Source of the DNA: Squalus acanthias
Taxonomy: Eukaryota
Assembly: GCA_030390025.1 (NCBI GenBank)
Contig: CM059425.1
Location: forward strand, 68,882,001 to 68,946,000
DNA: 64,000 bases
Reading direction: 5' to 3'
Shown: piece after piece, positions 21,976 to 63,757 of the stretch
Numbering within the stretch: the stretch's first letter is position 1
How the letters are laid out: each line of letters begins with the position of its first letter
The notes under the pieces: generated by a model
Told to the model about the DNA's origin: nothing
The model's input: the letters and a program-made list of their open reading frames with translations, nothing else
The model's database searches: none
Translations under genes and position numbers: made by a program

Positions 21976-22596
21976 ATTAAGTTTGAGAGTGACTTGCCTA
22001 AGTCCGAAAACTAGAGTCTTGGGGGGAAAAATTCGGTTGATTAGCGCCTCCCGTTAGCGCCCTAGAGGGCGCTAATGGGGCGTAAAGCAACTAGCGCCCG
22101 GGTGCGGCGATGTTTGCGCTGCTCGCGAAATTGACCAGACATTTTGTGGCGCGCTAAACACTACCGCCACGATCTCCTGTGCTCACAGATCATGACGTTA
22201 GTCAAGCGTGCAACGCCCCAGTAGTGCCCTGGATTGGATACTGAGTGGTGCCCCCTGCCTTTCCGCCTGTCGCTAGCAACGACAGGTAGAGGGGAATGTT
22301 TTGCAGTCAGGTAGGGACTGGGGGAGCGCTATTTAAAGTCAGCCTCTTCCTGCCTTTTTTTGTCAGCGACATTTTTGCACCACGCATTGAGAGAGAGAGA
22401 GAGAGAGAGAGACTTCTGGAGAGATTCAACGCTGTGTGAAGGAGTTTTGGGTACTGAGCATCATTTTGCAGGTTCTTTTTGATTTGACCTTCATCGCATC
22501 GATTTACAAGAGACTGTGAGAGCTGCACTGATTTGGGGTGTCGTCCTGCACCTGCAGAATCGGAGGCATCAGAGGCGCAGAGAGAGAGTGGCAAAC

Positions 22597-23684: not shown

Positions 23685-23980
23685 GCCCCTACTCAGAAGA
23701 TGGCTTCTGGCATGGAGAACAACATCATGGAAAGCAACCCGCACCCCCTATAGCCGGCCAAAGCTGCAATGATTCCAAAGGCCAAAAATGTTAATTTTGA
23801 ATACAACTTTTTTATTTAACAAACTCTGTGTGTGTCATTTATTCAGGACAAACAATTAGAAACAAAGACAACAAATCATGAACTAACAGAACTGGTTCTC
23901 ACAAGCTGGAGAAAAACACCAAAACAGTAAACAAATGTAATCAGACGAACCTCGACCTTTAGTACAAACATTCCCACCAT

Positions 23981-28800: not shown

Positions 28801-29289
28801 ACCTTTTCCCAGTCATCAATGGAGCATCTGGCACCTTCATTGGAATCTGCAACATTTCTCTACCTCACGGGTGGCCCAGGACCAGTAGGTGCCTCCTCTT
28901 CCATGGAAGTACACACAACAACCCTGGAGGCTATAGGGAATAGGTTAGACAGAAGCCACCATACTTGCTTTCAGCCATTTGGGGCTAGGATAAAGGCAGC
29001 TGTCTCTCAGGGTTTTTAGGATTTGATAGCAGCCATTAGACTAGACATCATACTGAGGTGTTATGGGAATGTGCCTGCCATAGTAGAATAGTTTGTATGT
29101 AGTGTGTAAGATGTGAGCAGTAGAGAAGCGAGGGTTGCAACAGTGGTGTGAGTAGTAGGAAAAGAAGGTGGCGTGGTGTGGTGCAGAGATTGTACGAGAG
29201 TGAAGGGAAGCGGGGAGGGAAGTGTTGTGTATAGTGAGGCTGCAGGGGTTGCAGGTGTGAAGAGAGATTAATTGAGGTAAGATTCTAGG

Positions 29290-29680
29290 ATTCTTACCTT
29301 GATAACTCTGGTGAGGTCATTGAACTTGCCATATCCTGGGAGCTATGCTCCTGGCATTGACCTCCTCTGTAACCTCTTCCCACTGACAGCGGAGGTCAGG
29401 ACCTCCAATGCAGCATTGGAGAATCTGGGGGCCCAATCTGCAGGTCTTGCGGCCATTTGTTTGTTCAGCCGCCTTCCTTATTGTCTGCAGCCAGAGTGCA
29501 CAACCCCTTTAAGAGGTGTTCACTGCCTTTAAGTGGCATCAGTGAAGCCCAAATTTTCTGCCCCTCCTCAAACAGATACACAGCCAATGAATAGCATGGG
29601 TAGCGCTGGCTGCACGCCGAACTCATGATGATGAACAGGCGCGAGCAGTGCACCCATTATTGGACACGATCGAATTTCTG
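29290..29680 (-). mobile_element. Harbinger end fragment with Myb exon-1 remnant
   Basis: Minus strand APRFSNAALEV and KFNDLTRVIK|GTAAG. Upstream region resembles 13400-13560. Confidence 0.65.
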
Positions 29681-29999
29681 TTTGAAACGCTCCATTGAAA
29701 GTCCAGCAATCATTTTTCAAAGCTTCTCCAGGCTGCGGCTGTAAAGACCTTTGTGAGTATCATCTGGTGCTGCCAGTATGTATGCCTCTTTTATCTCATC
29801 GTGAATTACCCTTAGTGCCATGAAGGTGTTAATCATGAGATTTGGACAGTCCTATGCCATTCCAAGTCATTTAAATACATACTCCCAGCAGTGTCGGCCT
29901 GCATGCACACTGTCAGAAGGCCCTACACCCAACTGGATATGGTAGCGCAGCCATTACAGGGTAAACAATTGCATTCCGCGGGCCTCAGTGAGTACAAAC

Positions 30000-30175
30000 A
30001 CCTTTTAATGGGATTCTGGATAAGCACATGAGGGAGAAAGGAATAGAAGGTTATGTTGATGGGGTGAGATGAAGAAGGGTGGGAGGAGGTCCCCCTAGAG
30101 GATAAACACTGGCCTAGACCTGCTGGTCCAAATGGCCTGTTTCTGTGCTGTAAATACTATGTAATACTTTGTACT
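30000..30175 (+). mobile_element. CR1 3' tail fragment
   Basis: CTGGATAAGCACATGAGGG...AAATGGCCTGTTTCTGTGCTGTAAATACTATGTAA. Confidence 0.6.
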
Positions 30176-30379
30176 TTCTAGTACCAAACATACACTGCAA
30201 AAATTAAATTTGGGGTCAATGTTTTTAATATAATAGATAGATGTACAAGAAAAGGTCACTTTTTTTAAACTTTTCTATAGCTTTTAATTTCAGAAATTGT
30301 GTTTGTAACTTTGTTCATTGTGTATCCTTGAATCATTTGCCTTGTTTTAAGTATGCATACATGTAGAATACATATAAAA

Positions 30380-30765
30380 GAAAGAACTTGCATTTATATA
30401 GTATCTTTCACTTCCTCAAGACGTCCTAAAGCGCTTTACAACCAATGAGGTACGGTTTTTGAAGTGTAGTCATTGTTATAATGTAGGAGGCATGGCAGCC
30501 AATCTGCGCACAGCAAGGCCTCACACACAGCAATGTGATTATAACCAGATAATCTGTTTCAGGTGTTGATTTGAGGGATAAATATTGGCCAGGACACTGG
30601 GAGAACTCCCTTGCTCTTCTTCGAAATAGTGCCATGGGATCTTTTACGTCCACTTGAGAGGGCAGACGGGGGCCTCAGTTTAATGTCTCATCTGAAAGAC
30701 GGCACCTCCGACAGTGCAGCACTCTCTCAGCACTAGATTTGTCTCAAGTCTCTGGTGTAGGACTT
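30380..30765 (-). mobile_element. Deu-domain SINE (SacSINE1-like)
   Basis: Reverse complement of the 34050-34450 sequence. Confidence 0.85.
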
Positions 30766-31354
30766 CAAATGCAGATATAAGATACCATAAAGTTAGAATA
30801 CTGTGCCTGCAGCAACGTTAGTGGGTTCATTAATATGTTTGTCAGACCATTAAAGCCAGGAGACATGTCAATAAAAGATAATAAACAGTAGAGGAGCTGA
30901 TTATGACATCTACTCTCCCCTCTGAATGACAAATAAATTGAGATCCAAATCAATTCACAAAACTACGTATTATATTTGAGTTGCAAACAGCATGCTTAGT
31001 AAGCTACATTTTTAAGTGCTCCATGTATTAGTATAAATGGGAACTAACAGTTCCTTCCTCTTGCGAGAGATTGTATGCCTGAAGAGATCATTGAAAAGTA
31101 ATAAGTCCAACCTTTGTAACACAGAGACAGGCCATAGATTCACCAAACATCACTGGCGTCAATTTTTGCTGCCGATAGCAGAATATTTCAGGCATGAATA
31201 ATTTGTTTTCCTACTTCTTAAGCTCCACTACACACCGCAGACATTTAAAATTATTTAACGTGAAGGGGTGGATCTCCTGTGGCGTTGCTCAGGGGACAGC
31301 AATGCCAGGAGATGGATCTGGATCAAGTCAGCAAGGATTAGCAATGTCCATGCT

Positions 31355-31930
31355 ACAGAGCCCTGGTTAGACCACACCTGGAGTACTGTGAGCAGTTCTG
31401 GGCACCACACCTTAGGAAGGATATAGTAGGCTTGGAGGGAGTGCAGCGTAGATTTAACAGAACAATACCTGGATTCCAAGGGTTAAGTTACGAGGAGAGA
31501 TTACACAAACTAGGGTTGTATTCCCTGGAATTTAGATGGTTATGGGGTGATTTGATCAAAGTTTTCAAGATATTAAGGGGAACTGATAGGGTAGATAGAG
31601 AGAAACTATTTCTGCTGGTTGGGGAGTCTCGGACTAGGGGGCAGAGTCTAAAAATTAGAGCCAGACCTTTCAGGAGTGAAATTAGGAAACACTTCTACAC
31701 ACAAAGGGTGGTTGAAGTTTGGAACTCTCTTCCGCAAACGGCAATTGATGCTAGATCAATTGTTAATTTTAAATCTGAAATTAATAGATTTTTGTTAACC
31801 AGAGGTATTAAGCGATATGGGGCATAGGCAGGTATATGAAGTTAGGTCACAAATCAGCCATGATCTAATTGAATGGTGGGACAGGCTCGAGGGGTTAAAT
31901 GGCCTACTCCTGTTCCTATGTTCCTATGAT
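31355..31930 (+). mobile_element. CR1 3' fragment
   Basis: ALVRPHLEYCEQFWAP...RKHFYTQRVVEVWNSLP, with tail ending (TTCCTATG)n. Confidence 0.9.
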
Positions 31931-33309
31931 CCATGTGAAAAGTAGCAGTGAAGCGTGTTGATGGCTGGTATGCGCACACAGTCATCCCAAAATAGGCAAT
32001 GAGGGCAGTGAGCTTGTGCATGGGCTGATCCTAAGAGGTATTGGGAACATACTGGAGGTGATGATAGCTAGCAACCAAGAACGAAACAGGACACAAACAG
32101 CAGGCCCAGAGAGGGAGACAGGCTTAGACAAGAGAAAGTTGTGCTACAAAAAATTCAGTGAATTTTTTTTAAAGGAGTATTATGTGATTTTTTTTTTAAT
32201 GTAGTAGTGGTTTGTAAGTTGGAGGATATAATCTCTTTCTTAGCTGTCTTTGTCGTCTTTGTATTGTTGCTTCTTTCTTATGTATTGCGTGTCTCCCTTC
32301 CTCTCATTTCCCTCTATTTCATTTAGTTTCTACTTGTTTCTCCATTTCCTTTCTCTTGCAATTCTCTGTTGTATTTTAGGTATCTGTCTGTGCCTTTTTT
32401 TTTCTATTGTTTGTCTCTGTCCTCTTCTGGTTGTCTGTTTCCTTGTCTTCTGTCCTTTCAGATGGGAGGGTGTGGGGTGGAAGACAGCATTTTGGCGATG
32501 ATGTGCTGACTGGGAAGGAATGTTGCTGTGGCTATAAGCTGGTGGGTTTTTGGTTGTATGTCATGGCTGTCAGGAAGGATTGGAGGCACGGAACATATTT
32601 TTGATGGTGAGCGTGGGATCCAGTGGGGAACGGATGTGGTTAAGGCAGGAGGCGGTAGGAGGGAAGGGAAACCAGCAATGAGTGGGAAGGAATGGGATGT
32701 CAGGGTGCCTGGGGTGGAGGTGTTTAGGAGGGAGAGGGAAAGGCCGGGAGCCGAGAAGAAATGGGCATTTGGGATAGAATGTGCCAGGACAGTGAGGGAA
32801 AGGATGAGGGGTGAGAAGCAGTGGGTGGTTGTGGTGCTTGGGATGGGACAAGGTAGGGGCAAGGTAAAAAGTAAGAGGAGTGGGGAATGGATACATGCTG
32901 AACGGCAAACAGCATGCCGAACTGAACAGATAGTGGTTATTTAAGCCAATCATAATATTTTGCCCAATGATGTGTGTGGCCCTTTTGAAATGTGATGCAA
33001 CAAGTTGCATTAGATACAAGATAGATAAAGTAAATCTGAAGCAGTGCTTCGAGATACTTCAAAACTATAGAGAGTATATCTACAATCCATGCTCCTGCAA
33101 TGACACTTTTCCCATTGAGGGTCATTATCAGGAATTTGGAGTTGGAGGGGGCAGTGAGCTCGGGGGAGAGAGAGCAACAGACTTTTTTACCCAAATTTCC
33201 GTTATGTGCTCCCTGAGGGTGAATCTGCACACTGGAGCACAAATTCGTAAAACATGCCAATACATCGAGAGGCACATGCTAAAACTGGTGAAAGGTCAAT
33301 TTAGGACTG

Positions 33310-35640: not shown

Positions 35641-36510
35641 TGATGTGCTGAATCATGTTATTTTATTGCAACTTTATTGAGTTCAAATTTACCGTCAAAC
35701 CCTTTTACTTTATAAGGGATTGTTGCACACAATTACAATTGTTTTTGGTCAGGTGCCAAGTCTGACCCCATCTTTGCTCCAGGACTCCCTGGTCGCTAAG
35801 GATATTTCTGGTAGTTGTTGATTCTTGATAAGCATTATTAATGTTATTCCTTTGCAGTCAGTGAGCTCCAACTTCCATAATTCCCTGTCATCATACCTTC
35901 TAATTCTCTTGTACCATGTCACTATTTCAATAATAAATCAGACATATGACTGTCTGAACAGTCAAATCCATTGAAAATAACACATTTGCAGCAATTTCCA
36001 AGTGTACTACATCACAACGAGAAAGGCAGAACAACTGGAATACTTCAATGACTTGAAAATTAGTCGTGCCTCTGATCACCATAGGTTTTCATAGCACTCT
36101 GCAAAAATGCCAATGTCCTTTAAAACTCTATCCACTAGGAGGAGCTGCAGATTCTTGAATTGTCCCGAAGAATGAGTGCGAGGGAGATTAGTACATACTT
36201 TAAATGACAGCATTCACGGTATTCATACAGTTAAGGGCTGTTCTGTATGAAAGTGATTTCTAATTTGATACCAAACTAACTGCCTATTTTTTTTTAATTT
36301 GTGAGTTTAAATCATGAATGTCTTTATTTTTTAAATTGTTCCAATAATCTTTATAGATTTATTTTTCCTTACCGTCAACCTTTTTGCATTGTCAAGAGTT
36401 CTACAGTATTGTTGAAACAGATAAACTGCGTTTGAATCACAGATTTGCCTGCTGCTATATTTGAACATTCTGGTGAACAATATGAGTTTCTATCCCTGTA
36501 AAGAGACCAT

Positions 36511-36696
36511 GGCCTAGAAATGCGTCTCGGGCGGTGGCGAAAAGCGGGCGGTAGCGGCTCGGCCGCCCGTTACACACCGCGCCTGATCTTCAGTTCCATT
36601 GACTGCAGTGGAACTGAATATCAGACACTGCGTATAACGGTCGGCCGAGCCGATACCGCCCGATGTGCCCCACTGCCCAGGACAAATTTCTAGGCC
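36511..36696. mobile_element. Short Harbinger-type MITE (186 bp)
   Basis: Perfect 11-bp TIR GGCCTAGAAAT/ATTTCTAGGCC, TSD CAT, and an internal hairpin. Confidence 0.88.
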
Positions 36697-37804
36697 CATG
36701 ACATTTAGTTGATTTATTTGATGAATTGTTGCAGCAGGAATCTTGAAACAGCAGTAATAAGCAAGTGTTAGTCAGCAAGTTAGGAGCTAAATCATGGGTC
36801 ACACAGTGAACACGCAAGTGAAACAAAGCGTGAACAATTACACAATCAAAACCTGAGAGCCCAACATTTTAAGGAAGCTGAAATATCCTCGTACTGTTAG
36901 TGGGATGTCAGAAACCCAAACAAGGCCAAATTGGCTAAAGGTTAGTGAAAAAAATCATATGATTGAAATGTCTTATTATCTTGGCTTTGTTGCTCTTGGA
37001 GATTGTCAATTTTGCCTTTCCAGAATATGGTTATATAATTTTAGGATGGCATTACAAAGCAAGCACAACAAAGTAACACTAAACCATTGTTACAGGAACT
37101 GAGAACCAGTTTGGCAATAATTAAAAACAATACAAACTTCTGAAGTAGCTAACAAATGATGCATGGAGCAATCAGCAGAGTTTGTGACAATGGAGACATT
37201 CTCCAAAGGAAACATTCCTAGACCCTTCGACCCTGATATTTACTGGGAGGTGATTAGTGAGCGGAGGCACGCAGGGCGTGGGGGCGGGGGTGGCAGTGGG
37301 GTTGTAGCAGCCAAAAACCTGGTAATATGAGTAATGCGGAGGTCATGCCAAATTTAACTGCAGGACCTCATTTGGATTTTTTTCCTCCACTTCCCAGCTG
37401 GCAGCCAGCCAGATAGAGAGGTTGGCTGTCAGGCGGGAAGGCCCGTGCTGCAAGGCCACAGCCGGAGAGTGGAGTGGAGAGGAGAGAGAGAGGGAGGGAG
37501 AGATGGGGGGGATGTGGGGTAAAGACATCACGGAGGGGGTTGATCGCCGACCGAGGGGGAGATCGCGGGTCAGGGGAAGATGAAAGCAATTTTCAATTTA
37601 CCGTAGACGTTTGCCTTTATTTATGCCTTCTAAAAGTTTGCCTTTATTTATGCCTTCTAACTTGTAAACTAATCGTTTATATGGTACAGTATCAAAAGCC
37701 TTGCTGAAACCTAATCACAGAATTACCATTGTGAACATGGTCTGTCATTTCTTCAAAGAACTCTAGTAAATTTGTTAAGCAAGATCTCCCTCCCATAAAT
37801 CTAT

Positions 37805-40215
37805 TGCTGATGTCAGACCGAGTCCTGAAGGACATAACTGCCAGTCTGGGCTTGCGACAGGTGATGAGAACACCAACACGAGGGAAAAACCTACTTGACC
37901 TCGTCCTCACCAATCTACCTGTCACAGATGCATCTGTCCATGACAGTATTGGTAGCAGTGAACACCGCACATTCATTGTGGAGACGAAGTCCCGTCTTCA
38001 CACAGAGGACACCCTCCATCGTGTTGTGTGGCTCTACCACCGTGCTAAATGGGATAGATTCAGAACAGATCTAGCAGCTCAAAACTGGGCATCCATGAGG
38101 CACTGTGGGCCATCAGCAGCAGCAGAATTGTATTCCACCACAATCTGTAACCTCATGACCCGGCATATCCCTCACTCTACCATTACCATCAAGCCAGGGG
38201 ACTAACCCTGGTTCAATAAGGAGTGTAGAAGAGCATGCCAGGAGCAGCACCAGGCGTACCTAAAAATGAGGTGCCAACCTGGGGAAGCTGCAACACAGGA
38301 CTACGTGCATGCTAAAAAGTGGAAGCAACATGCTATAGACAGGGCTAAGTGATCCCACAATCAACGGATCAGATCAAAGCTCTGCAGTCCTGCCACATCC
38401 AGTCGTGAATGGTGGTGGACCATTAAACAACTAACGGGAGGAGGAGGCTCCATGAATATGCCCAATGATGGTGGAGCCCAGCACGTGAGTGCAAAAGACA
38501 AGGATGAAGCGTTTGCAACCATCTTCAGCCAGAAGTGCCGAGTGGATGATCCATATTGGCCTACTCCTGAGGTCCCCACCATCACAGAAGCCAGTCTTCA
38601 ACCATTTCGATTGACTCCACGTGATATCAAGAAATGGCTGAGCGCACTGGATACAGCAAAGGCTATGAGCCCCGACAACATCGCGGCTATCGTGCTGAAA
38701 ACTTGTGCTCCGGAACTAGCCATGCCTCTAGCTAAGCTGTTCCAGTACAGCTGCAAAACTGGCATCTATCCGACAATGTGGAAAACTGCCCAGGTATGTG
38801 CTGTCCACAAAAAGCAGGACAAATCCAACCCGGCCAATTACTGCCCCTTCAGTCTACTCTCAATCCTCAGCAAAGTGATGGAAGGTGTCATCGACAGTGC
38901 TATCAAGTGGCACTTACTCACCAAAAACCTGCTCACTGATGCCCAGTTTGGGTTCCGCCAAGACCACTCGGCTCCCAACCTCATTACAGCCTTGGTCCAA
39001 ACATGGACAAAGGAGCTGAATTCCAGAGGTGAGGTGAGAGTGACTGCCCTTGACATCAAGGCAGCATTTGACCGAGTGTGGCATCAAGGAGCCCTAGTAA
39101 ACCTGAAGTCAATGGGAATCGGGGGGAAAAAACGCTCCACTGGCTGGAGTCATACCTAGCACAAAGGAAGATGGTTGTGGTGGTTGAAGGTCAATCATCA
39201 CAGCCCCAGGACATCGCTGCAGGAGTTCCTCAGGGCAGTGTTCTAGGCCCAAACATTTTCAGCTGCTTCATCAATGACCTTCCTCCAACATAAGGTCAGA
39301 AATGGGGATGTTCGTTGATGCCTGCAGAGTGTTCAGCGCCATTCACAACTCCTCAGATAATGAAGCAGTCCATGCCCGCATGCAACAAGACCTGGACGAC
39401 GTTTAGGCTTGGGCTGATGAGTGGCAGGTAACATTCGCGCCACAGAAGTGCCAGGCAATGACTATCTCCAACGAGCGAGAGTCTAACCACCACCCCTTGA
39501 CATTCAACGGCATTACCATCGCCGAATCCCCCACCATCAACATCCTGGGGATCACCATTGACCAGAAACTTAACTGGACCAGCCACATAAATACTGTGGC
39601 AACAAGACCAGGTCAGAGGCTAGGTATTCCGCAGCAAGTGTCTCACCTCCTGACTCCCCAAAGCCTTTCCACCATCTACAAGGCACAAGTAAGGAGTGTG
39701 GTGGAATACTCTCCACTTGCCTGGATGAGTGCAGCTCCAACAACACTCGAAGCTCGACACCATCCAAAACAAAGCAGCCCGCTTGATTGGCACCCCATCC
39801 ACCACCTTAAACATTCACTCCCTCCACCACCGGCGTACCGTGGCTGCAGTGTGTACCATCTACAAGATGCACTGCAGCAACTCGCCAAGGCTTCTTCGGC
39901 AGCACCTCCCAAACCCGCGACCTCTTCCACCTAGAAGGACAAGGGCAGCAGGCGCATGGGAACACCACCACCTCCAAGATCCCCCTCCATGTCACGCACC
40001 ATCTTGACTTAGAAGTATATCGCCGATCCTTCATCGTCGTTGGATCAAAATCCTGGAACTCCCTACCTAACAGCACTGTGGGAGTACCTTCACCACATGA
40101 ACTGCAGTGGTTCAAGAAGGTGGTTCATCACCACCTTCTCAAGGGTAATTAAGGATGGGCAATAAATACTGGCCTTGCCAGCGACGCCCACATCCCATAA
40201 ACGAATTTAAAAAAT
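37805..40215 (+). mobile_element. 5'-truncated CR1-clade LINE of a second family, inserted in an older minus-strand CR1 (37690-37804 and 40216-40410)
   Basis: PTRGKNLLDLVLTN, ALDIKAAFDRVWH and GVPQGSVLGP motifs, with a 3' tail and A-run. Flanks read SCLTNLLEFFE and ITPIFKKG on the minus strand. Confidence 0.9.
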
Positions 40216-41049
40216 ACCATACCTTTCTAGGTGTTCCATTATCCACACGTTCTGGATGCCTTCTAATACTTTACCCAAAACAGATGTTAGGCTTGTAGTT
40301 TGCCGGTCCCATACCCTTTTTTAAAGATTGGTGTGATGCTAGCTATTTTACAATCCTTGGGCACTACCATTTCTAATGACACTCTAAAGATAATGGCAAG
40401 GGCATAATCGATTTTTTTTTTTTAATTCGTTCCTGGGATGTGGGCATCCAAATAGATACCAAGGATGCATGAAGGTACACCAGATAGATTAGAAAGTCTA
40501 GTTATTATATACATTATTATTAACTCAGTTTAAATTAATGAAATAAGATTTAGCAAATATATCAATGGTTCTGGTACAAGATTTTTTTAAATTCTATTAA
40601 TAAATCTATAAATGCATAATTTTTAGATGGAAGTCAGATAGGAAATAATTATGTATGTTGTGAGTTTTTTTTTAAATTGTGTGGGATATTTTTCTCTGTG
40701 TAAAATCTGATGACTGGTGACAAAGAACAGTTATGTCTTTTTTTCCACTATTACCATTAGCTTCAGTTTTCCTTACAGTCCAAAAATGCATGTAATGAGA
40801 GTAATGGAAAAAAGGGAAACAAATTCTTGACAATAACAGTATCAAGCATGTAAAAGGCCTCTGTTAAGAAAGACTCCCTCTGTTGTGTAATATAAAGAAA
40901 ATTTTATAATTCGCAATAGAAGTAAATTGTGCAAAGCATTTTGTTTTCCTAACAGAATGGGTTCAATGACAATTGTCAGCTGTATTATAGTGCTGCAGCA
41001 GCTACAGGAGGTGGTTACCCAAGATGGTATCGAAGGCAAGACAAACTAT

Positions 41050-41390
41050 CCCAGGAAGTGAATGTACTGCACCAGAGATTTCTACCTATCTGTGACTTAG
41101 CACCAGTTTATGATGATGTCCTGGATCCTCTCTGACGACTATTACCAAGGTGTGCTACTTTGTAGTTGAAGACTTGCAAGCACAATCGGCCAGCTTCACT
41201 GCGCTACCAGTGGCACTGAAGGTCACCACTGCCCTGAGCTTTTATGCCACAGGCACCCACAAGCGACACTGCAGGGTCAGTCACTGTGCCACCCACTGCT
41301 GCATTAAGCACATTACTAAAGCCATCTTTCACCATATACCCACCTACATAGACTTCAGCTGACTCCAGCAGCAGACCAAGCAGTCTAGGC
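41050..41390 (+). pseudogene. Harbinger transposase N-terminal remnant
   Basis: TALPVALKVTTALSFYATG...HCCIKHITKAIF. Confidence 0.75.
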
Positions 41391-41906
41391 AGGGAGATGG
41401 ATGTTAGAGGGTCTCATTGTCCATTTCTTGTCCCAATCCCAGCGAGCTCTACAATTGGACACTGGTCCAGAAATTCGGTGGGCCGCAATCTCCACGGTTA
41501 AACCGAGAGCGTGCCTACAGGGGTCTGACCTCGCCAGAGTTTTTACAGGGTCAGTGAGAGAGTGCCGAACTTGCATAGAGCTTGCGGGCTTATCTCTAGT
41601 GCCCACCTGCCGCATGCGGACAGGAAATCCAGCACCTGCCTGCCATTGCGGGGAGGGTTGCCCAAGCTTCACCCCTCCAGACTTCATTGAGTGCTCACTT
41701 AGCCCCCTATATAAGGGGGCCAATCCAGATAGAAAAAAAACTAGTTTTCAGGACTCCAGGCCATATCCCTGGTAGTGTACCCCCTCCCCCCAATTGGGCC
41801 CACGCGTACCCATCTGGAGGCCAGTGCGCCTCATTTTTCTCAGTGAAACAGCCTCCAGTCCTACCCCGAGTCCCACAGAAACAGTCAGCATAGGAAGCCT
41901 CCAACC

Positions 41907-42544
41907 TGTAAGCTTTTTATTTTGACTGGCATTAAATTGACAGCAAGACCAATTCTTTTGAAACAATTTGGAATAAGTTAATTCAACACACACACCCATG
42001 CACATCAAAACAATAGTCTACTGGTATCCTATGACTCTACTCGATTACAACAGGTAAGGTAATGGGTTAGATTTAAACAGACTTGTACTTCCCTGAGTCA
42101 AGCAATGCATGTGGCCTTTTTACTTGCTTCTTGGTCTGGTCTGTAGAGGGAGGGCTTCCTGCTTTTCCGTGTGGTCATCCAGAGAGAGAGCAAGAGCCTT
42201 TGGGTTCCTTGTTTTACATCTTTTTAAGTCCATTGTCTCTAGTCTAAATTGCTGAGACCCCAGGATTGGGTCTTAGTTTCATGGCTGTTCTTGATTGACT
42301 TTCCTTTGAACATGTGTCTGTCTGCAGTGGCTGGTGCCATTTCTTGATTAAGTTAGTTGTTAACACCTTTTAATGGCTCTTGAGTTTCGATGGGTTTTCG
42401 ATGGGGGTTATCCTGTTATGCAGGTTTCCTTTGTTAAGTTTCGCTGGGAGATCCATACACATCAAGTTCATCTTTATTACATACATCTTATATTAATAGT
42501 CTCAAGTCCATCACTCATCATAAACATATATTTTTATTCTTACA
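41907..42544 (-). repeat. 3' LTR (638 bp)
   Basis: 41997-42544 is repeated at 44874-45111 plus 49189-49518. Minus-strand AAGGCGGGGAA polypurine tract lies just upstream. Confidence 0.92.
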
Positions 42545-42592
42545 GATTCCCCGCCTTGAGGGAGAAATATTCTTATTGACCCCTCATTTGGT

Positions 42593-42940
42593 TTATCTCC
42601 TCAGGGTTCGCATATGGTGGTTCAGTTTCCTAAGGAGTTTTCTCAGGTAGCAGATCATGATGATCCCCACCACTACGATTATGGCTTGTGCCAGTATCAT
42701 AAGCATTGAGAGGGTTCTGAGCCAGGGGTGTTGTCCTACATTATATAACAGGTTAACGTAATCCTGGACCTGTTTAAACAGTGATTTCAAATAAAACTGT
42801 TGGACTATAACCTGGTGTTGTGCGACCTCTCAATTCTGTTTAAACAGGCCAGCCTCCTCTCTTATGGACAAGAGGTTCTGGGGCAGTTCATGTATTACAT
42901 CCCGTCCCTCTTTATTTATTCCTGTCAGGATCCCCTTAAG
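42593..42940 (-). pseudogene. env-like C-terminal remnant (helical segment, transmembrane anchor, basic tail)
   Basis: After removing the 42782-42835 insert and one duplicate: LKGILTGINKEGRDVIHELPQNLLSIREEAGLFKQVQDYVNLLYNVGQHPWLRTLSMLMILAQAIIVVVGIIMICYLRKLLRKLNHHMRTLRR*. Confidence 0.6.
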
Positions 42941-44870
42941 CTGTTACTCTTTGGCAGTTTTTGAACTGGTTAATATGATACCATTTCTTGTACTTAACGC
43001 CCTTTTCCCCCGGTAACTGAATCAAATAAACCGCGGGGTTCAATCGGTCTATAATCGTATGCGGTCCCCACCACCTGGGCTCAAAGGCAGGCTTCTTTTT
43101 CCCATAATTTGGAATCATTATGGTGTCCCCCACCTGATACTCAAAGGGACGTACTTTCTTGTCAAATTACCTTTCAATTTGTCTTTTTGACTTCTCCAAT
43201 TTCGTGGCCACAAATCGATTCATCTGATCGGTGTGATCTACCACTTGTTCCAGCCACTTGGAACTACATGGTTCCATTTTCAAGGGGCTCATCCCCGTTA
43301 GTGTTAGCTGGCCTGGCGTTCTCATGAGTCTCCCCGTCATGGCCTGATATGGGGAGACTCCTGTTGTTTTATGAGGTGTGGACCTCATTGCCATTAAGCA
43401 CATTGGCAGCATGTTAGCCCATTGAGTGGGGCGGTCCGCACACAATTTTTTTAACATTAACTTGAGGGTCCTGTTCCCCCTTTCGACCCCTCCAGACGAC
43501 TGGGGGTGGTGAACAATATGTAGTTTGTGTTTTATCCCCAACATTTCCTGCAGGTGGGTAAAAATCTTACTGGTAAAGTGCGAACCTTGATCACTGTCCA
43601 CTTGTACCGGTACTCCCCACCTACAAAACACATGATTTAATAGTGTTTTGGCTGCCGTGATTGCGGTGTTGGAGCGGCAGGGGAATGCTTCGATCCATTT
43701 AGTGAATTGATCCACCACCACTAGGGCATGCTGAAAATTGCCTTGCGCCTGTGGAAGTGGCCCAATGAAGTCTATCTGGAGGTGAGTCCATAGCCCTTGA
43801 GGTGGGGGCTGTTTTGGAAGTGGGTAATTGCAGTCGCTGTATTATCTCCACCTTGTGGGAGTCGGGGGACGATCCCTCTGGAGAAATGGACACTCCCAGA
43901 AAGGTGACCCGTTCTTTTACCAACTGAGCCTTACGAGGATTCACCTTTAGTCCCGCCTCAGCCAACAATGTCAACAGTTCATGCAAAAGGGACAGATGCT
44001 CCTCCATGTTATCAGTTGCCAGCAGTAGATCGTCTACGTACTGTAGCAAGCAGGTAGGGCGGGAAAAGTCTCAAAACTGCAGCCATTCTTTTGTGGAAGA
44101 TCGTGGGGGCATTGTGGAACCCCTGAGGCAGGCATGTCCAGGTGTAGCTCTGGTCCTCAAATGTGAATGTGAATTTGTACTGGTCCTCCTTTTTAACAGG
44201 GATACTCCAGATCCATTGGCAATGTCGAGGGTCGAGAAGTACATGGAAACAGCAGGAATTTGAATATGGCGGGAGCTTCTCTTACTACCGGTGAGCAGGC
44301 TGGCGTTACAGAATTTAACTTTCTGTAATCAATAGTCAGTCGCCTGCTGCTATCAGGCTTTTTAACCGGCCATGTGGGTGAATTGGTTGTGAAGGTGCCT
44401 GTCCTAACAACACCCTGCTCGACTAGGGATTTTATGGTGTCTCGGATGTAAGGGTGACTCTCCCTTGGGATGGGGTATTGTTTAGTGAATGAGTGGGGGG
44501 GTCCCTCAATAAACTCTTCGCCTGCCATTTTTCCACAATCATGCTTGCATGTGGAAAACACCACTAGGTGTTCCTGAATTAGTTTTGCCACAGCTTCGTT
44601 TTCGCTCCCCGGAGGGTCATACTCGGATGGCTTTTTAATAGCAAAAACCGAGTGAGCATCTGAAATTTCTATCACTCTTGCATTATTTCTCAATCCCATC
44701 CAAACACAGTCCCGATTGTAATCTATTACCACGCCATACTGATCCAACACATCAGTCCCTAAAATTCCCCTTCCGTCGGGGGTGGTCATCAGCATCGGTG
44801 CTGGGACCTTACAGGTGAGGCCTCCCAACTGAAGTTCAGAGGCCTTCCCTGTATATGCGGTGGTTGTATC
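42936..44870 (-). pseudogene. pol: pol remnant: protease C-terminus, RT, integrase core and C-terminal module; RNase H deleted
   Basis: GILGTDVL, KQYPI, NSPTWPVKKPD, LTIDYRKLN, LQYVDDLLLA, VVDQFTKWIEAFP, DSDQGSHF, HPQSSGGVERGNRTLK, PRWWGPH. Confidence 0.92.
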
Positions 44871-45472
44871 TCACATGCACATCAAAACAATAGCCTACTG
44901 GTATCCTATGATTCTACTCGATTACAACAGGTAAGGTAATGGGTTAGATTTAAACAGACTTGTACTTCCCTGAGTCAAGCAATGCATGTGGCCTTTTTCC
45001 TTGCTTCTTGGTCTGGTCTGTAGAGGGAGGGCTTCCTGCTTTTCCACGTGGTCATCCAGAGAGAGAGCAAGAGCCTTTGGGTTCCTTGTTTTACATCTTT
45101 TTAAGTCCATTGGGGGAGAAATTCAGTATCGCCCCGTTTGGGGCACAATTATCGGCTGGGCACAAAGATTAGCGCCTGCCGCTAATTATCGCCTCCGACT
45201 GCAAACTTGACTTTTATTGTCCCTGGAGGTGATTGGAGCGCTAAATCAGGCGCTACACATCTGTCTTAAGGCGCAAAGGCCGAGGAGCGAGGCGCTAACT
45301 CAGAGCGCGGGCGCAGCGCAGGTGCTGTCAGTTAGCGATGGAACACAGACACACTGGTGCCGGACAGTTCTTAAAGGGGAGGGTCGATCTTGCGCTCCAG
45401 CCATACCCTGTTCATTGGAGCCTTGAGTCTCGGCCTGGAGAGACCTGTGCCTAAATCTTCCAGCCAAGGACT

Positions 45473-47294
45473 ATGGAGAGGGTGAGAGAACAAGCTCAGC
45501 GCTTCAGCGAGCGGGCCTTGGATGCTCTGGTTGGCGCGGTGGAGCGCAGAAGATCTATACTCTTCCCTGAGAGTGGCAGGAGGCCTTTGCCACGTGAGTA
45601 CAGAAGAGAGTGGAGGGAGGTGGCTCAGAGCGTCTCCTCCAGGAGCATGGTGCCCAGGACCCACATACAATGTCGAAAAAAGTTCAACGACCTCACTCGG
45701 ATCGTCAGGGTGAGTGGCTTTTTTTCAATACCTCTCCATCCCTCCATCTCAACCTCACTCTATGGCCAGAGGGTCTTAAAACCCCAATGCCCAACACTCA
45801 TCCAACACCTATGGCCCTCTCATGAAACACACACGCACATTCCACACTTTGCATACAGTAAGGGCTATTCACCTATGGGAGGCACATCAGGCAAGACCAT
45901 GGCTGTATATTTACTCAGACGCTGTCCTTTTTCTTGCAGGCCAAGCTATCTCATAATAGGAGACAGCAGCAACGGACGGGTGGAGGGCGGCCTCAGCTGC
46001 AACCCCTCAGCGATCTTGAGGCGCCGTCCACAGGATTGTGGCAAGCCGGGTGATCGGTCCCGTCGCCACTGGAGACGCCGACCCCTTTCTGGACAGCAAT
46101 GGTAAGGCCATCACCTTTTTGTCCTCTGTCGTTCCACTTGTCCCTCACACCAGCCTTTGACACTTTCAATCCAACTTACTAAATCGCTGCACTCATTCCT
46201 CCCTTACTGTCCCCCTGTCCTCACGCTAAAGCCACTCTTGTACCTCCCTGTTTTCAGATGGTGATTCACCAGCTGAGGAGACGGGCCCTCAAGCTGCCAG
46301 TGGGAGTGAAGCTGCAGGCGAGGAGGAAGATGAAGGCGGAGCATCAGCGCCACCCTCTCCCGAGGAAGCCCATGCCCACACTGGGAACACGCCTTCCCTG
46401 GAGGGGAGCAGGGGGGAAGGGTCTGATGAGGGTGAAGCTCCAGGACCCAGCGGGCTGCAGCAACGCAATGGGGGTAGGGAAGCTCGGGTGCCTTCTCCCC
46501 GGAGGGAGAGTATGCCAGCGAGTCCTACTGCACTGGACGCAGAGGAGGAGCGGCTGATCGCTGAAATGAACACCCAGACGGTGGACATGCACACTCAGCT
46601 CATGGGTGCAGTGGGAAGGGTGCCCAAATGCATTGAATCACTGACAAGGAGTGTGGAGCACTTCGCTGTAGCACAGGCGGATGCCACGCAAATGTTTAGT
46701 GCTGCAATTCAGTCACTGGCTGCCGTGACCCCATCTCTGACTGCTCCCATGCAGACTCAGATTGAGGCCACGCGAGCACTGACTGCTGCCATCCTCGCTG
46801 GTTCGGACACATTTCCCCGGGGCTCTCACCGCGCCGCAGCAGGCCAGCAATCTGTGCTCCAGCAGATTGCTCCGGATGCTGAAGTGCTGCCCCATGGGAG
46901 TGCCAGTGTGTCGGTCGAGCAGGGAGTTGCTGTCCTCTCTCAAGATGACAGCATTCCTGCTGCTACCACTGTCACTTCTCCACTGCACTTGCCACCGCCT
47001 GTAGGACAGACTGCTGCCGCCCATGCAGAATTGGTGCAGTCTGCAGCCGGGCCCTCCAGGCCCAGAGCAGGTCGAGGCTGTCCTTCAAGGGCATCTGCAG
47101 TCTCAGGTTCTGACAATCAGCAGCCTTCCACCAGCCTTGCTGCAGTCACTGGGGTCCCATTACGGAGGAGCAGAAGGGGGGGAAGTGCGCAAGGGAAGGA
47201 GATCACCCTCGAAGGGCAAAAAGTAGGAGGTGTGACAAAATGTTGGTCATTTTTTTTATTAAAGGCCGAGGTTCGTGGTCAAACTTTTGTTTAG
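45473..47294 (+). pseudogene. Harbinger Myb/SANT-like gene; exons 45473-45709, 45940-46101, 46258-47294; 1-nt deletion in exon 2
   Basis: MERVREQAQRFSERALDALV...WREVAQSV...QCRKKFNDL. GT-AG sites are conserved with copy A; exon 2 is 162 nt versus 163 nt. Confidence 0.87.
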
Positions 47295-47536
47295 TGTTTT
47301 GGACATTATCTCCAGGTTGTGAGAACTAGTTATGTTAATGACTTTTTTTGTGTTTCTTTCTATTAGTTTGTCATGAGGAAATGACACACACAGAGTTTGT
47401 AAAATAAATAAGTTTTTGTATTCAAAATGTACATGTTTGGTCTTTGGAATTATTGCTGCCTTGGCCGGCTTAGGGGTTGCAGGTTGGTTTCATTCATGTT
47501 GTTCTCAATGGCAGAAGCCATTTCCTCAGCAGGGGC

Positions 47537-48616
47537 CTAGAAGCGGCTTGCTATCAGCCGTTGACGGACGGCCCTTCCAGTTTCTACATTGTGGGCCTCC
47601 CTCCCGCCTTGGTGCTGCTGATGATCATCCTCCTCCTCTTCCTCCTCCTCTTCCTCCTCCTCCTCTGGTGGTGCTCCAAGGCCTGGTGGCATTGGCTGGG
47701 TCCTGAGGATTGCCAGGTTATGCAGCATGCAGCACACAACTACGAAGTGGGAAACTCGCTCAGGCGAGTACTGCAGGGCTCCTCCAGAATGGTCCAGACA
47801 GCGGAACCGTTGCTTAAGCACGCCGATTGTGTGCTCAACGATGTTCCTGGTAGCTTGATGGCTCTCGTTGTACCGCAGCTCAGCAGGGGTGTTGGGCGTA
47901 CGGAGCGGTGTCATCAGCCAGGTGCTCAGTGGATATCCCTTGTCCCCGAGAAGCCAACCAACTGGCTGATGCGGTGCCTGGAAAAGTTCTGCCACAGTAG
48001 TCTGGCGCAGGATGAATGCATCGTGGCAGCTGCCAGGATAGTGGGCATTGACAGCGAGTACCAGCTGTCTGTGGTCACAGACCAACTGAACGTTTAAGGA
48101 ATGGAACCCCTTTCTGTTGCGGAAATCCTCGGCATTCTCATGCGGAGCACGCAAAGCCACATGCGTGCAGTCAATGGCGCCCTGCACCATGGGGAAGCCC
48201 GCTATCCTAGCAAAGCCCATTGCGCGTTCTTGCTGCTTGTCTGGGGTCATGGGGAAAGAGATGTACTCTCGTCTCCTTTTAAAGAGGGCATTTGTGACCT
48301 GACGGATGCAGCAATGCACCGCGAACTGGGAGATATTGGCGATGTCCCCAGTAGCTGACTGAAATGAGCCAGTGGCATAAAAGTTCAGAGCTACTGTGAT
48401 CTTCACTGCCACCGACAGAGACGTCCTGGACCTCAGTTGAGGCTGCAGATCTGGCTGCAGCAGGTGGCAGAACTCAGTGACCACCTCCTTGCTGAAGCGC
48501 AGCCTTCGCAAACACTGCTCCTCAGACATGTTAATATATGTGAATTGTTGGCGATATACCCTGGGAGGGTAAGGTCTCCTGTACAGAGGCCTGTTGGCCC
48601 TCTTCCGTCTGGCCAT
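47537..48616 (-). CDS. Intact PIF/Harbinger DDE transposase (359 aa from the first in-frame ATG conserved in copy A)
   Basis: Stop-free ORF with GAIDCTH, NRKGFHSLNVQLVCD, PGSCHDAFIL, LGDKGY, RNIVEHTIGVLKQRF and an acidic tail. Confidence 0.93.
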   Translation of the reverse strand: MARRKRANRPLYRRPYPPRVYRQQFTYINMSEEQCLRRLRFSKEVVTEFCHLLQPDLQPQLRSRTSLSVAVKITVALNFYATGSFQSATGDIANISQFAVHCCIRQVTNALFKRRREYISFPMTPDKQQERAMGFARIAGFPMVQGAIDCTHVALRAPHENAEDFRNRKGFHSLNVQLVCDHRQLVLAVNAHYPGSCHDAFILRQTTVAELFQAPHQPVGWLLGDKGYPLSTWLMTPLRTPNTPAELRYNESHQATRNIVEHTIGVLKQRFRCLDHSGGALQYSPERVSHFVVVCCMLHNLAILRTQPMPPGLGAPPEEEEEEEEEEEEDDHQQHQGGREAHNVETGRAVRQRLIASRF

Positions 48617-50712
48617 GATTGCCACTCTCTCTCTGCGTCTCTGTGTCCTCCGATTCTGGTGGTGCAGGACGACGCCCCCAATCAGTGCAGCCCCCACAGT
48701 CTCTTGGCAATCAAAGTTATGAAGGTCAAAAACCAAAGTACCTGCAAAGTTATGATCAGTAGCCAAAACTACCTCACACAGCGTTGACTCAATGCAGAAG
48801 TCTCTCTTTCTCTCTCTCCGAACGAGTGGTGCAAAAATGTCTACCACAGAGAAAGACAGGAAGAGGCCCCCTTTAAATAGCGCCCCCCCATCCCCACAGC
48901 GACTGGGGAGCGTTCCAGTCTTCCGGTCGTTGGTTGCGCCAGGCGGAAAGGATGGGGGCGCCACTCAATTTCCGCTCCGGGGCGCCACAAGGGCGATGCA
49001 CCCTCGTATGACGTCAAGAACTGCGTGCGCAGGAGATCGCGGCGGTAAAGTTTAGCGCCGCCGCAAAATGTCTAGTTAATTTCGCGAGCGGCGCAAACAT
49101 CGCTGCGCCCGGGCGCCAGTTGCTTTGCGCCCCATTAGCGCCCTCTTAAGGCACTAACGGGAGGCGCAACCAACTGAATTTTCCCCCCATTGTCTCTAGT
49201 CTAAATTGCTGAGACCCCAGGATTGGGTCTTAGTTTCATGGCTGTTCTTGATTGACTTTCCTTTGAACATGTGTCTGTCTGCAGTGGCTGGTGCCATTTC
49301 TTGATGAAGTTAGTTGTTTGTTAACACCTTTTAATGGCTCTTGAGTTTCGATGGTGAGTTTCGATGGGTTTTCGATGGGGGTTATCCTGTTATGCAGGTT
49401 TCCTTTGTTGAGTTTCGCTGGGAGATCCATACACATCAAGTTCATCTTTATTACATACATCTTATATTAATAGTCTCGAGTCCATCACTCATCATAAACA
49501 TATATTTTTATTCTTACAAACCCTACGACTGCCCTCCGACATAATTGGCCACATAAGATGTCGGAGGAGGAGGATTCTCTGCCCTACAAGGCTGACAGGA
49601 AATTCCCAGAAATTGCGGTAACCTGTGGCCTATTAAATGAGGCAACCACCAAACAGCAAGAACAGTGTCCACACAAGGTACCTGTCTGCTGTATGCTCAC
49701 AAACTCTCAGGAAGTGGCTGCTGGTCTGGGCACTTGGGTGACAGAGTGAATGAATGATTAAGTAAGGAGGTAAAGAATGAGAGTTCAAGGGATGATGCAG
49801 CAGCAGCAGACCAGGCATTTTAGGCAGACACACATCTTCTCTCATGTTACTTTTTCCAACATATGTCCATTTTTTAAATCTGTTTGCAGGAGAAGATGAC
49901 CCATAACAGGCAGCAGCCATGCATGCAGCTAACTTGCAACCCTTCACTCCTTATAAGGGGAGGGCCCTGGAGATCCTGGGTATAGAGGCAATGGGTGAGG
50001 TTGAAGGCCTCTCCCCAGTTTATAACTGGCATCATCCCTTGATTTCTCATACTTTACCTCCTTACGTAATCATCCATTCACTCTGTCATACATAGGCATA
50101 CACTGCAGCACTGAGGTATAGCATACTAGAATATGTTGCCATGTAAGCTCTTTCTCAAGGAGTGTCACAGCAAACATTGTAAAATCTGTTGTGCTTCTGC
50201 TCCCGTAGGTTCCTAAGAGGAAGAGGTGTCAGAGCCCAATGCTGAGCCTTAACGGAGTGTCTCACAGCACCCTGTACCATCCCCTCCTACAGTGGCAAAC
50301 ACACACATTCATTCTGTGGGGGTCAGTTGCTACATTGCAGGAGGAAGCATTTGGTGAAACACAGAACACGAGTGAAGAGGAGCAATTACATATGCAATTG
50401 GAGGGTCAAGAGCTCCTTCAGTTACTGGACCTAACAGGACGTGCCTACTGACACAGTTTGGTCATTTTAGTCTGCGCTTATGAGTTTGGGATACCTATGG
50501 AGGAGTCCGCACCCCACAATTGTGTAATGCTGCATGACCACCGGACCAAGCTGCAGACCACCTTTGAAAGCATAGCCTCTTCAAAGCCCTTGGCTGAGGT
50601 TCAAAGCTCAAATTTGGCTTCTTTAATAAGTACTTTGACTGGCACACTCGAGACCCTAAGTTCCATTTTGCAATCATTTGTTTTTTCTGCATTCAATATA
50701 TTAACAAACCAG

Positions 50713-51454
50713 GGGGGGAAGAATTCGGTTGCTTTGCGCCTTCTGTTAGCGCCCTCTTAGGGCGCTAATGAGGCGCAAAGCAACTAGCGCCAGGGCGCGG
50801 TGCCGCCAACGCCTCCTGCAAAATTCAGCGGGCGGTTAGCGGTGGCGGTAACCATTAGCGCCCGCAGCGCTGTGCCGTCGGCGATGACATCATCGCCATG
50901 CACAGCGCCCCTCTCACGCCCCGGCCGCGATCTTTGGTAGTGTCCCCTGACTTACTGCCGGACGCTATGTCCAACGGGGTCAGGGGGGCCTACCTGCGGC
51001 CGGGGCGGCGCTAATTAAAGGCGAGGTGCCGGGCAGCCATTTTTGTTGCTGGCCGCCTGCCAGCACCTGCCCCCGTTGCCTTCCCCGGCCCCCGTGAAGC
51101 CCCCCCGTGGGGTGCCGGCTGCGCTCCGTGAGCCCGGCACTTCTCTTGAGTGCCGGGCTCTTTTGCCGGCACTCCGATCCCTGGTGGCCCTGCTGGGCCC
51201 CGGATCGCGCTGCGCAAGGCCCCTCCCCTTTAAGAAGGGGAGGAAGGACTGCAGTACCGCGGCGCGACATGCCGCAGCGCCATTCCCTCGCAGCGCCCCA
51301 AGAGGGAGGCGGGGTGCTTCCAGTAGTGCCCCGCTTATCTCTTGGGGCGCTACTAATGAATTTCGGCCACGGGGGCGCGAATTTTTTCGGGGCTCTAAAA
51401 GTAGCGTCCCAGCGAAGTTAGCACCCAAAGGGGGCGCGACTCAATTTTTCCCCC
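50713..51454. mobile_element. Non-autonomous Harbinger derivative (MITE) related to copies A and B
   Basis: First ~100 bp match 22022-22130. TIRs GGGGGGAAGAATTCGG / CTCAATTTTTCCCCC; probable TSD CAG. Confidence 0.85.
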
Positions 51455-61280: not shown

Positions 61281-61749
61281 TGTCAAACTTTCAAAATCTT
61301 TGTGGCGTTTTCTTTTGAAGTTGAAGGATTTGGTTTTGAATTTGGTCATATTTAATACATGTTCCATATTTTGTATTTTTATACTGCTTCAAATATACAC
61401 TGCTCACCTTCCTAGTAAAAAATAGTCCTGCATATGTGCAGTGTGATTGCCCTTCCATGTAAGATCCCCCAACACTAGATTTAAAAACCCTGTCTGGTTT
61501 TTAAATGGGCTGGTTACTGGGGAGCCAGCTTGAAAAGCAGCTAAGTAATCACTCTAGCATGGTTTGGGAAATAATCGTGTACAAACTACTCACTGAAGCA
61601 TGAACATATCTTTAAAGAACCCAAATGAAATGCTCTGTTATTGGAAGAACTTACATTTATATAGAGCCTATTACATCCTCGGGGTACCTCAAAGTGCTTC
61701 ACAGCTAATCAATTGCTTTTTAAGTGTGGTCAGTGTTGTTATGTACACA

Positions 61750-62990
61750 AGCTCTGACCTGCTCTTGTAACCACAGTATTTATGTGGCTGGTCCAGCTAA
61801 GTTTCTGGTCAGTGGTGACCCCCAGGATGTTGATGGTGGGGGATTCAGCGATGGTAATGCCATTGAATGTCAAGGGGAGGTGGTTAGACTCTCGCTTGCT
61901 GGAGATAGTCATTGCCTGGCACTTGTGTGGCACGAATGTTACCTGCCACTTATCAGCCTTAATGTTGTCCAGGTCTTGTTGCATGCGGGCACGGTCTACT
62001 TCATTATCTGAGGAGTTGTGAATGGAACTGAACACTGTGCAGTCTTCAGCGAACATCCCCATTTCTGACCTTATGATGGAGGGAAGGTCATTGATGAAGC
62101 AGCTGAAGATGGTTGGGCCTAGGACACTGCCTTGAGCAACCCGAGTGGTCCTGGCAGAACCCAAACTGAGCGTCAGTGAGCAAGTTATTGGTGAGTAAGT
62201 GCTGCTTGATAGCACTGTTAACGACACCTTCCATCACTTTGCTGATGATTGAGAGTAGACTGATGGGGCAGTAATTGGCCGGATTAGATTTGTGGACAGG
62301 ACATGCCTGGGCAGTTTTACACTTTGCCGGTTAAATGCCAGTAGCTGTACTGGAACAGCTTGTCTAGAGGCACGGCTAGTTCTGGAGCACGATAGCCGGG
62401 ATGTTGTCAGGGTCTATAGCCTTTGCTGTATCTAGTGCGCTCAGCTATTTCTTGATATCACGTGGAGTAAATTGAAAAATTGAATTGGCTGAAGACTGGC
62501 TTCTGTGATGGTGGGGGCCTCAGGAGGTGGTTGAAATGTATCATCCACTCAGCACTTCTGAGTGAAGATGTTTGTAAACGCTTCAGCCTTGTCTTTTGCA
62601 CTCGCGTGCTGGGCTCCGTCATCAGTGAGGATGGGGATGTTCATGGAGCTTCCTCCTCTCGTCAGTTCTTTAATTGTCCACCACTGGATGTGGCAGGACT
62701 GCAGAGCTTTGATCTGATCCGTTGGTTGTGGGATCGCTTATCTATAGCATGCTGCTTTTGTTTGACCTGATGCCACGAATTGGTGGGACAGAACATACCC
62801 AGGGAGGGTGAAAGGTATGATTCTATGAATATGACTATGTCAGGCTGTTGCATGATTAGTCTGTGGGACAGCTCTCAAGTCCCCAGATATTAGTGAGGAG
62901 GACTTTGCAGGGCTGGGTGTGCCTTTGTCATGTCCAAATCCAGTGCCTAGGCCAATGCCGGGTGGTCCATCTGGTTTTATTATTATTATT
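61750..62990 (-). mobile_element. Deleted copy of the CR1-clade family at 37805-40215
   Basis: QGSVLGPTIFSCFINDLP, WQVTFVPHKCQAMTIS. Confidence 0.88.
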
Positions 62991-63629: not shown

Positions 63630-63757
63630 GAGATGCGGAGATGCCGGTGTTGGACTGGGGTGGACAAAAATGAGAAGTCGCACAACACCAGGTTATAGTC
63701 CAACAGTTTTATTTAAAATTACGAGCTTTCGGAGCTGCTGCCCCTTTGTCAGGTAGA
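63630..63757 (-). mobile_element. Penelope pseudo-LTR fragment with a degenerate minimal hammerhead ribozyme
   Basis: Minus strand CTGACAA-AGGGGC..GCTCC-GAAA-GCTCGTA, followed by the unit seen at 18925-19010. Confidence 0.7.

Follow-up and report, generated by a model that had tools for sequence, protein, structure and literature searches.

A 64,000-nucleotide stretch of the Squalus acanthias genome (assembly GCA_030390025.1, contig CM059425.1, positions 68,882,001 to 68,946,000; the whole stretch is called the window here, and coordinates count from its first letter) contains at 41907-49518 an element with long terminal repeats (LTRs), which an original prediction, made from the letters alone, had taken for a young insertion with a retrovirus-type pol of a possibly deep-branching lineage. 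Does this element descend from a true retrovirus, from which branch, and how old is it? Our analysis indicates that a canonical retrovirus of the loosely delimited group related to class III and to snakehead retrovirus (SnRV) (clade Huo, Xu et al. 2018) likely left this element in the germ line as a provirus. It would be a new member, and a defective one, of the class III/SnRV-related endogenous retroviruses (ERVs), which previous work had shown to be common in cartilaginous fish. Judged from sequence comparison, its nearest relatives would be a Pol of Xenopus tropicalis and other Pols of frogs and coelacanth.

Organisation of the provirus

The element is in minus-strand orientation with TG...CA ends, and the target-site duplication (TSD) AACC abuts it on both sides (41903-41906 on the left and 49519-49522 on the right, 4 bp each). 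Its 3′ LTR (41907-42544, minus strand) is complete, with TG...CA ends and a length of 638 bp. Its putative signals are a TATA-like TAAAAA (~42226) and, close to the downstream end, AATAAA/AATTAA. Comparison of the LTRs recognized two parts of the 5′ LTR, both on the minus strand, an outer part with the unique 3′ region (U3; 49189-49518) and an inner part whose final ~90 bp are deleted (44874-45111), which are split by a nested DNA transposon described below. A polypurine-tract (PPT)-like run with 10 purines in 11 positions (42547-42557, minus strand) lies 2 nt from the 3′ LTR. The LTR also carries, on the plus strand and antisense to pol, a strong splice-donor-like CAG/GTAAG (42030-42050 and 44920-44935).

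Internal retroviral sequence makes up ~2.3 kb of the 7.6-kb element, and no viral reading frame is left intact in this copy. Three deletions were recognized, which removed the unique 5′ region (U5), the primer-binding site (PBS) and gag together with the start of the protease (PR); the tether, RNase H and the N-terminal part of the integrase (IN); and most of env. What survives of pol is the C-terminal part of PR with the polymerase domain of the reverse transcriptase (RT) (43807-44870, minus strand), broken by three frameshifts (~44260, ~44210 and ~44070), and the IN core (D,D35E; rve E 5e-16) with an SH3-like C-terminal domain (42936-43820, minus strand), which holds a GPF/Y-like motif WWGPH and a premature stop at 43167 and has lost the N-terminal zinc domain. 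The closest relative of the IN piece was a UniRef Pol of X. tropicalis, P0001 (37 matches from 497 candidates), which carries tether and RNase H Pfam domains and is collinear with the element. The element covers P0001 residues 40-389 (PR end and RT) and 896-1184 (IN core and C-terminal domain), and its RT is joined directly to IN, the equivalent of residues 390-895 (tether, RNase H and IN N-terminus) being absent. All four predicted motifs were found on the minus strand, namely KQYPI (~44483), NSPTWPVKKPD (~44384), LQYVDDLLLA (~44046) and HPQSSGGVER (~43508), and the predicted 4-bp TSD and 638-bp LTR are likewise in place.

Downstream of IN, a C-terminal remnant of ~350 bp (42593-42943, minus strand), which position and shape only make a probable env, runs from an amphipathic stretch through a 19-residue hydrophobic anchor (~42650-42706, Kyte-Doolittle 2.9) to a basic tail. 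It gave no significant match in Pfam, PDB or 299 fetched proteins, and the ESM Atlas returned one unnamed match at 0.78 and none that was significant. There was also no Pfam match to PF00523, the paramyxovirus F-like env, with this surviving C-terminal remnant as the query. The ~35 bp between its stop (42593) and the PPT hold no accessory gene like tas/bet of foamy viruses, though a deletion may have removed one. Within the remnant, a 54-bp piece of a high-copy host repeat (42782-42835, plus strand) sits between the copies of a 12-bp duplication (42770-42781/42836-42847).

Placement of the reverse transcriptase

The tblastn identity of the element to P0001 was 57% over IN and 46-48% over PR-RT. 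Over ~218 RT columns, identity to the element was highest for P0001 (65.6%), followed by the Pols of coelacanth and frogs (54-57%) and by SnRV (45.0%), with 34.7-37.5% for lokiretroviruses (Loki, 5 rows), 35.0% for feline foamy virus (FFV) and 28-34% for Gypsy (6 rows). Reference labels were assigned through published RT rows (P0051 is SnRV, P0288 is FFV), Loki rows were labelled by their NSPIWPVLK/CPFG pattern, and rows similar to HERV-L were labelled ERV-L-like. Trees were built on chosen subsets of 156-391 fetched proteins, from which mainly redundant Gypsy rows had been dropped, with 68 rows in a quick mixture-model RT tree, 65 in the RT tree, 32 in the approximately unbiased (AU) test of RT only, 39 for RT plus tether and 60 for IN; the samples held FFV as the one foamy row and no Odin, foamy-like ERV (FLERV), class II or CmiERV rows.

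The RT tree of 65 rows put the element inside the canonical retroviruses at 100/98 (bootstrap/Shimodaira-Hasegawa-like approximate likelihood ratio test, SH-aLRT), with Loki (100/99) and Gypsy (100/99) apart. There it belonged to a four-row clade with P0001 (100/99) and to an 18-row clade of frog and coelacanth Pols (94/87). The quick mixture-model tree agreed (SH-aLRT 96, 100 and 97). With RT plus tether (395 columns), Loki and Gypsy were again separate at 96/100 (SH-aLRT/bootstrap), and the AU test rejected trees that join the element to Loki (p 0.0006 and 0.00003) or to Gypsy (p 0.001), while a sister relation to SnRV (p 0.17) was neither rejected nor separated from one to FFV (p 0.09). Since the RT lies outside Gypsy in the trees and in the AU test, the predicted retrovirus-type, non-Gypsy pol stands, and nesting of the RT within Gypsy/Metaviridae, which would have spoken against it, was not seen in the RT trees. 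The reason given for that claim is weak, because the YVDD motif taken to separate retroviruses from Gypsy is also found in Drosophila Gypsy and Loki rows; the combination of LPQG and QYVDD is the more telling retroviral sign. At the first of these motifs, the published RT sequences read PFG in Loki and LPFG in Odin.

Besides the tether, the nearest relatives have an RNase H of the PF00075 family. A search of metagenome contigs for related loci gave one weak locus (L001, 27%), and one of viral contigs gave none. The intact Pol frames of frogs and coelacanth (P0001 and P0040-P0045) bear the automatic names 'Gypsy integrase-like' or 'NYNRIN-like', and it is because of such names that this ERV group is hidden in databases. 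NYNRIN itself did not turn up in a search with the P0001 IN, and the literature offered no usable phylogeny for a link to NYNRIN/CGIN1.

The integrase and points against the placement

The IN core, whose reading frame is unbroken, was 63% identical to that of P0001, and in the IN tree the element was sister to P0001 (100/97), with Loki in a clade of its own (100/100) that did not contain the element and a backbone that stayed unsettled. Past the IN core, a GPY/F-like motif is present as WWGPH in the element and as WEGPY in SnRV. The Loki-like IN is the single remaining oddity of the element.

Several observations weigh against a class III/SnRV-related origin. Identity of the IN core reaches 48-54% with Loki rows, compared with 36% for SnRV and 38% for FFV, although this may reflect rate, because SnRV and FFV are long branches. 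SnRV joins the clade of the element at just 75/62 in the 65-row RT tree and at SH-aLRT 80 in the quick mixture-model tree, and the RT+tether tree moves SnRV elsewhere, leaves the basal backbone with bootstraps of 25-51 and does not recover the frog and coelacanth group as monophyletic. The tether signal in these RT+tether analyses is that of P0001, since the element fills 218 of the 395 columns. The foamy sister survived the AU test (p 0.09). In a first AU test, run on RT alone from quick trees, no placement was rejected (Loki 0.12, Gypsy 0.20, FFV 0.49), and the free tree was sub-optimal. Every top PDB match was foamy, with no SnRV or Loki entry among the PDB matches. Finally, it is by position and hydrophobicity only that the remnant downstream of IN is probably the end of env.

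Alternative placements

It is possible, if on balance unlikely, that the shark-type genome, the frogs and the coelacanth share a separate and unnamed basal lineage of canonical retroviruses, with a Loki-like IN and no nearer to SnRV than to ERV-L or to foamy viruses. The unresolved backbones of the 65-row RT and 39-row RT+tether trees, the RT identity to SnRV of just 45%, and the IN identity nearer to Loki than to SnRV or FFV would all fit such a lineage, as would a search with the P0001 IN, which placed Loki-type Pols right after a frog relative. Moreover, Chong et al. (PMC4299795) still list SnRV- and Ovex1-related ERVs as unclassified. This lineage is harder to reconcile with the Loki clade of the IN tree, which excludes the element and leaves the IN identity as a possible rate effect, with an SnRV sister that passes the AU test (p 0.17), and with the breadth of clade Huo, which covers all vertebrate lineages (PMC6001957) and may be the same group, so that the lineage would be this group under a finer name. 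A more specific form, which we hold to be doubtful, is an unnamed earliest-type canonical branch of the same hosts, distinct from SnRV, with a canonical RT, a Loki-type IN and possibly an F-like env.

A foamy-like ERV (clade Tu/FLERV) would account for the foamy Pol and IN that are the best PDB matches, and foamy viruses, like this element, have a TSD of 4 bp. An FFV sister was also tolerated by the AU test (p 0.09-0.10 on RT+tether, 0.49 on RT alone). We nevertheless consider this origin improbable: RT identity to FFV (35%) is no higher than to Loki, the element has neither the TNSPIQAV..GGWR..N.KALN pattern seen in three fish FLERV rows nor the NTPVYPV/LPQGFLNSP pattern of foamy rows, and FFV, the single foamy row in samples that did not include XtrFLERV or CmiFLERV, never joined the element in free trees. 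If the element were related to lokiretroviruses or Odin, it would be the first such case in a cartilaginous fish, and HDCG, NSP.WPV, RLTIDYR and DIANG are indeed common to the element and Loki rows, in addition to the Loki-like IN identity and the dual RNase H of the relatives. However, dual RNase H is common to all retroviruses, LPQG differs from the PFG of Loki and the LPFG of Odin, the published Loki-Xtr row is not the same sequence as P0001, motifs taken from P0001 and from the element did not turn up in the part of the Loki supplement that was searched, and the element lies outside Loki in all RT trees and in the IN tree, with AU p < 0.001; this origin is very improbable. Least credible of all is an env-less Gypsy/Metaviridae retrotransposon. 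Gypsy elements, too, can have a 4-bp TSD and a GPF/Y-like motif, and P0001 bears the automatic name 'Gypsy retrotransposon integrase-like', but RT identity to Gypsy rows is just 28-34%, the element falls outside them at supports of 97-100 (AU p 0.001), its closest relatives carry the PF00075 RNase H besides the tether, and an env-like remnant is present. Taken together, among the spuma-, class III- and lokiretrovirus-related options of the original prediction, class III in the wide, SnRV-related sense fits best, the foamy option is disfavoured (p 0.09), and the lokiretrovirus option is rejected on RT+tether.

Comparison with described groups

By RT, SnRV and SnRV-like viruses (clade Huo; PMC6001957, PMC4977317, PMC12193657) are the closest named ones (45%). 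They are similar in the motifs LPQGFH and LLQYVDD, in the GPY/F-like IN motif of some members and in the position of env, and their hosts include fish, amphibians, coelacanth and reptiles, among them hosts of the named relatives of the element. They differ in that the sister relation is weakly supported, IN is 36% identical, and no accessory 3′ open reading frame is visible before the PPT, and also in that the shark copy is dead, has neither gag nor RNase H and has lost most of env. P0001 and the 'NYNRIN-like' Pols of Latimeria, Pyxicephalus, Aquarana and Rhinophrynus (P0040-P0043) are collinear with the element over PR-RT-IN, and P0001 (66% identity in RT, 63% in the IN core) is its sister in the RT and IN trees at bootstrap 100; these proteins, which come from amphibians and coelacanth, differ in that their Pol frames are intact and their names automatic only. 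CmiERV lineage I of the elephant shark clusters with SnRV and has a similar LTR divergence, dated to tens of million years (PMC4422223), a likeness at the level of description. Lokiretroviruses and Odin (PMC7947760, PMC9040795) share several RT motifs, the dual RNase H of the relatives and a similar IN, Odin being set apart from the element by motif only (PMC9040795). ERV3 (ERV-L) and ERV4 likewise have a retroviral RT outside classes I and II, but a 5-bp TSD and no GPF/Y motif (PMC4299795), compared with the 4-bp TSD and WWGPH of the element.

The predicted poor sampling of such lineages in cartilaginous fish was half right. Lokiretroviruses were found in none of three chondrichthyan genomes in the accessible text of PMC7947760, a count that the element leaves unchanged. 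However, clade III RT loci form the majority in six chondrichthyan genomes, with 2,843 loci (PMC11089739), an SnRV-clustering ERV lineage is described in elephant shark (PMC4422223), and the hosts of clade Huo come from all major lineages of vertebrates (PMC6001957). In the literature searched, we found no paper that names a subgroup of shark, frog and coelacanth elements, which Hayward et al. 2015, Repbase or the supplements of Xu et al. 2018 may contain.

Age and decay of the copy

The two LTRs differ by 8 substitutions (6 transitions and 2 transversions) in 548 aligned sites and by indels of 4 bp and 13 bp, in agreement with the few substitutions and two small duplications predicted, and their Kimura two-parameter distance is 1.5% (Poisson interval 0.6-2.9%). 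With t = K/2u, this gives 3.4 million years (1.4-6.5) at a mammalian rate (PMC7947760), and 34 million years (14-65) at an assumed shark rate (PMC4422223), while the pedigree rate of the epaulette shark (PMC10587355) yields ~11 million generations (4.5-20); gene conversion between the LTRs would bias every one of these figures too young. The older figures would fit better, given the later damage load and the spread over several organisms described below. Thus, the provirus is probably not young, and the fairly recent insertion proposed before is unsupported for a shark host, the assumed shark rate giving ~34 million years. Low LTR divergence need not mean youth in hosts with a slow clock.

Based on its relatives and the anchor remnant, the parent virus would have carried PR-RT-tether-RNase H-IN plus env. 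Its reverse transcription used the PPT, and insertion by the DDE integrase left the 4-bp TSD. The copy then died in place, with the loss of U5, PBS and gag, a deletion that probably post-dates integration because the 3′ LTR retains U5. Two further deletions removed RNase H and most of env at some stage, and frameshifts, the 54-bp host repeat and the Harbinger insertion added to the damage; the last landed no more than ~10 bp away from the TATA-like box, on its upstream side, where it would uncouple U3. As it stands, the copy appears to encode no functional viral enzyme, nor is it likely to be mobilisable in trans, because the PBS, leader and packaging signal are gone.

Abundance of the family

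Part of the stretch was contained in 20 of 24 sequencing runs, none of which held half or more of its words; the best 16 runs, from seven organism codes and six studies, reached shares of 0.29-0.39, and four runs (organisms A, B, D and A) were compared in detail. In run X1, summed contig depth, which is not a copy number, was 8-11 over the flank, rose to ~950-3,100 across the greater part of the internal region and reached 7,300-18,800 over the LTR, and runs X5 and X9 gave a similar pattern, so that related copies are abundant in runs from three organisms. This suggests a high-copy family, and the excess of LTR over internal sequence in summed depth suggests solo LTRs. Related contigs extend beyond 44870, 43806 and ~42950 into sequence missing here, and those of three of the four examined runs lack the 54-bp insert; the three deletions and the insert are therefore not family-wide. 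One X1 contig matches the flank and then 26 bp of LTR, which is below the 31-base rule and merely hints at a shared insertion.

The nested Harbinger and other repeats of the window

The transposon that splits the 5′ LTR (45112-49188; 4,077 bp) is a PIF/Harbinger DNA transposon with a 3-bp TSD ATT and terminal inverted repeats of 15 bp (13 of 15 matching). It carries a Myb/SANT gene from 45455 (plus strand) and a DDE_Tnp_4 transposase frame at 47537-48964 (minus strand; E 7e-41), and with these genes, short inverted repeats and TSD it is an ordinary HARBI1-type copy. Harbinger thus makes up more than half of 41907-49518, which the original prediction had not mentioned. That prediction was also silent on the ~90 bp lost from the 5′ LTR, on the loss of gag, PBS, RNase H and much of env, and on the env-like remnant. 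A second, near-complete Harbinger at 22010-26204 is ~85% identical to the nested copy and in opposite orientation, and older remnants lie at 6020-6660, 10008-13340, 41129-41356 and 50713-50862. The region is Harbinger-dense, since the left flank of the ERV (41129-41356) is also a degraded Harbinger transposase piece.

The short host repeat found in the env-like remnant has a very high copy number (summed depth 1e5-1e6) and occurs in the window at 18875-19009, 42782-42835 and 63632-63719, with an inverted pair of copies at 18875-18972. Other copies are preceded by CTGA..GA...CGAAA, which to us recalls the hammerhead ribozymes of Penelope-like elements; Rfam gave no hammerhead match, no match over 41000-50500 and chance matches only for the repeat. 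Degraded frames of non-LTR retrotransposons, presumably CR1/L2-like, lie at 14900-18600 (minus), 26400-32000 (plus), 37700-39950 (plus) and 61700-62750 (minus), and the GC-skew blocks of the window are due to them. Just outside the element lies a pair of 60-bp inverted repeats separated by 230 bp (49739-49798 and 50029-50088); this pair and a 190-bp palindrome (36508-36700) are each possibly a miniature inverted-repeat transposable element.

Implications

The locus itself is a ruin for which a function is unlikely. Its value lies in drawing attention to a high-copy ERV family of several species, which belongs where the retrovirus tree is resolved least. Jumps between host classes are known for non-foamy fish retroviruses (PMC6001957), and the RT identity of 66% to a frog element agrees with this pattern. 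What remains of interest is the unresolved basal position together with the Loki-like IN. The mismatch between RT and IN, if upheld, bears on the scenarios of integrase replacement and env origin that Wang and Han left open (PMC7947760). If the doubtful earliest-type branch were true, the lineage would adjoin the split of Loki and Odin, and the Loki integrase (and env) would be ancestral retroviral states and not Loki-specific replacements.

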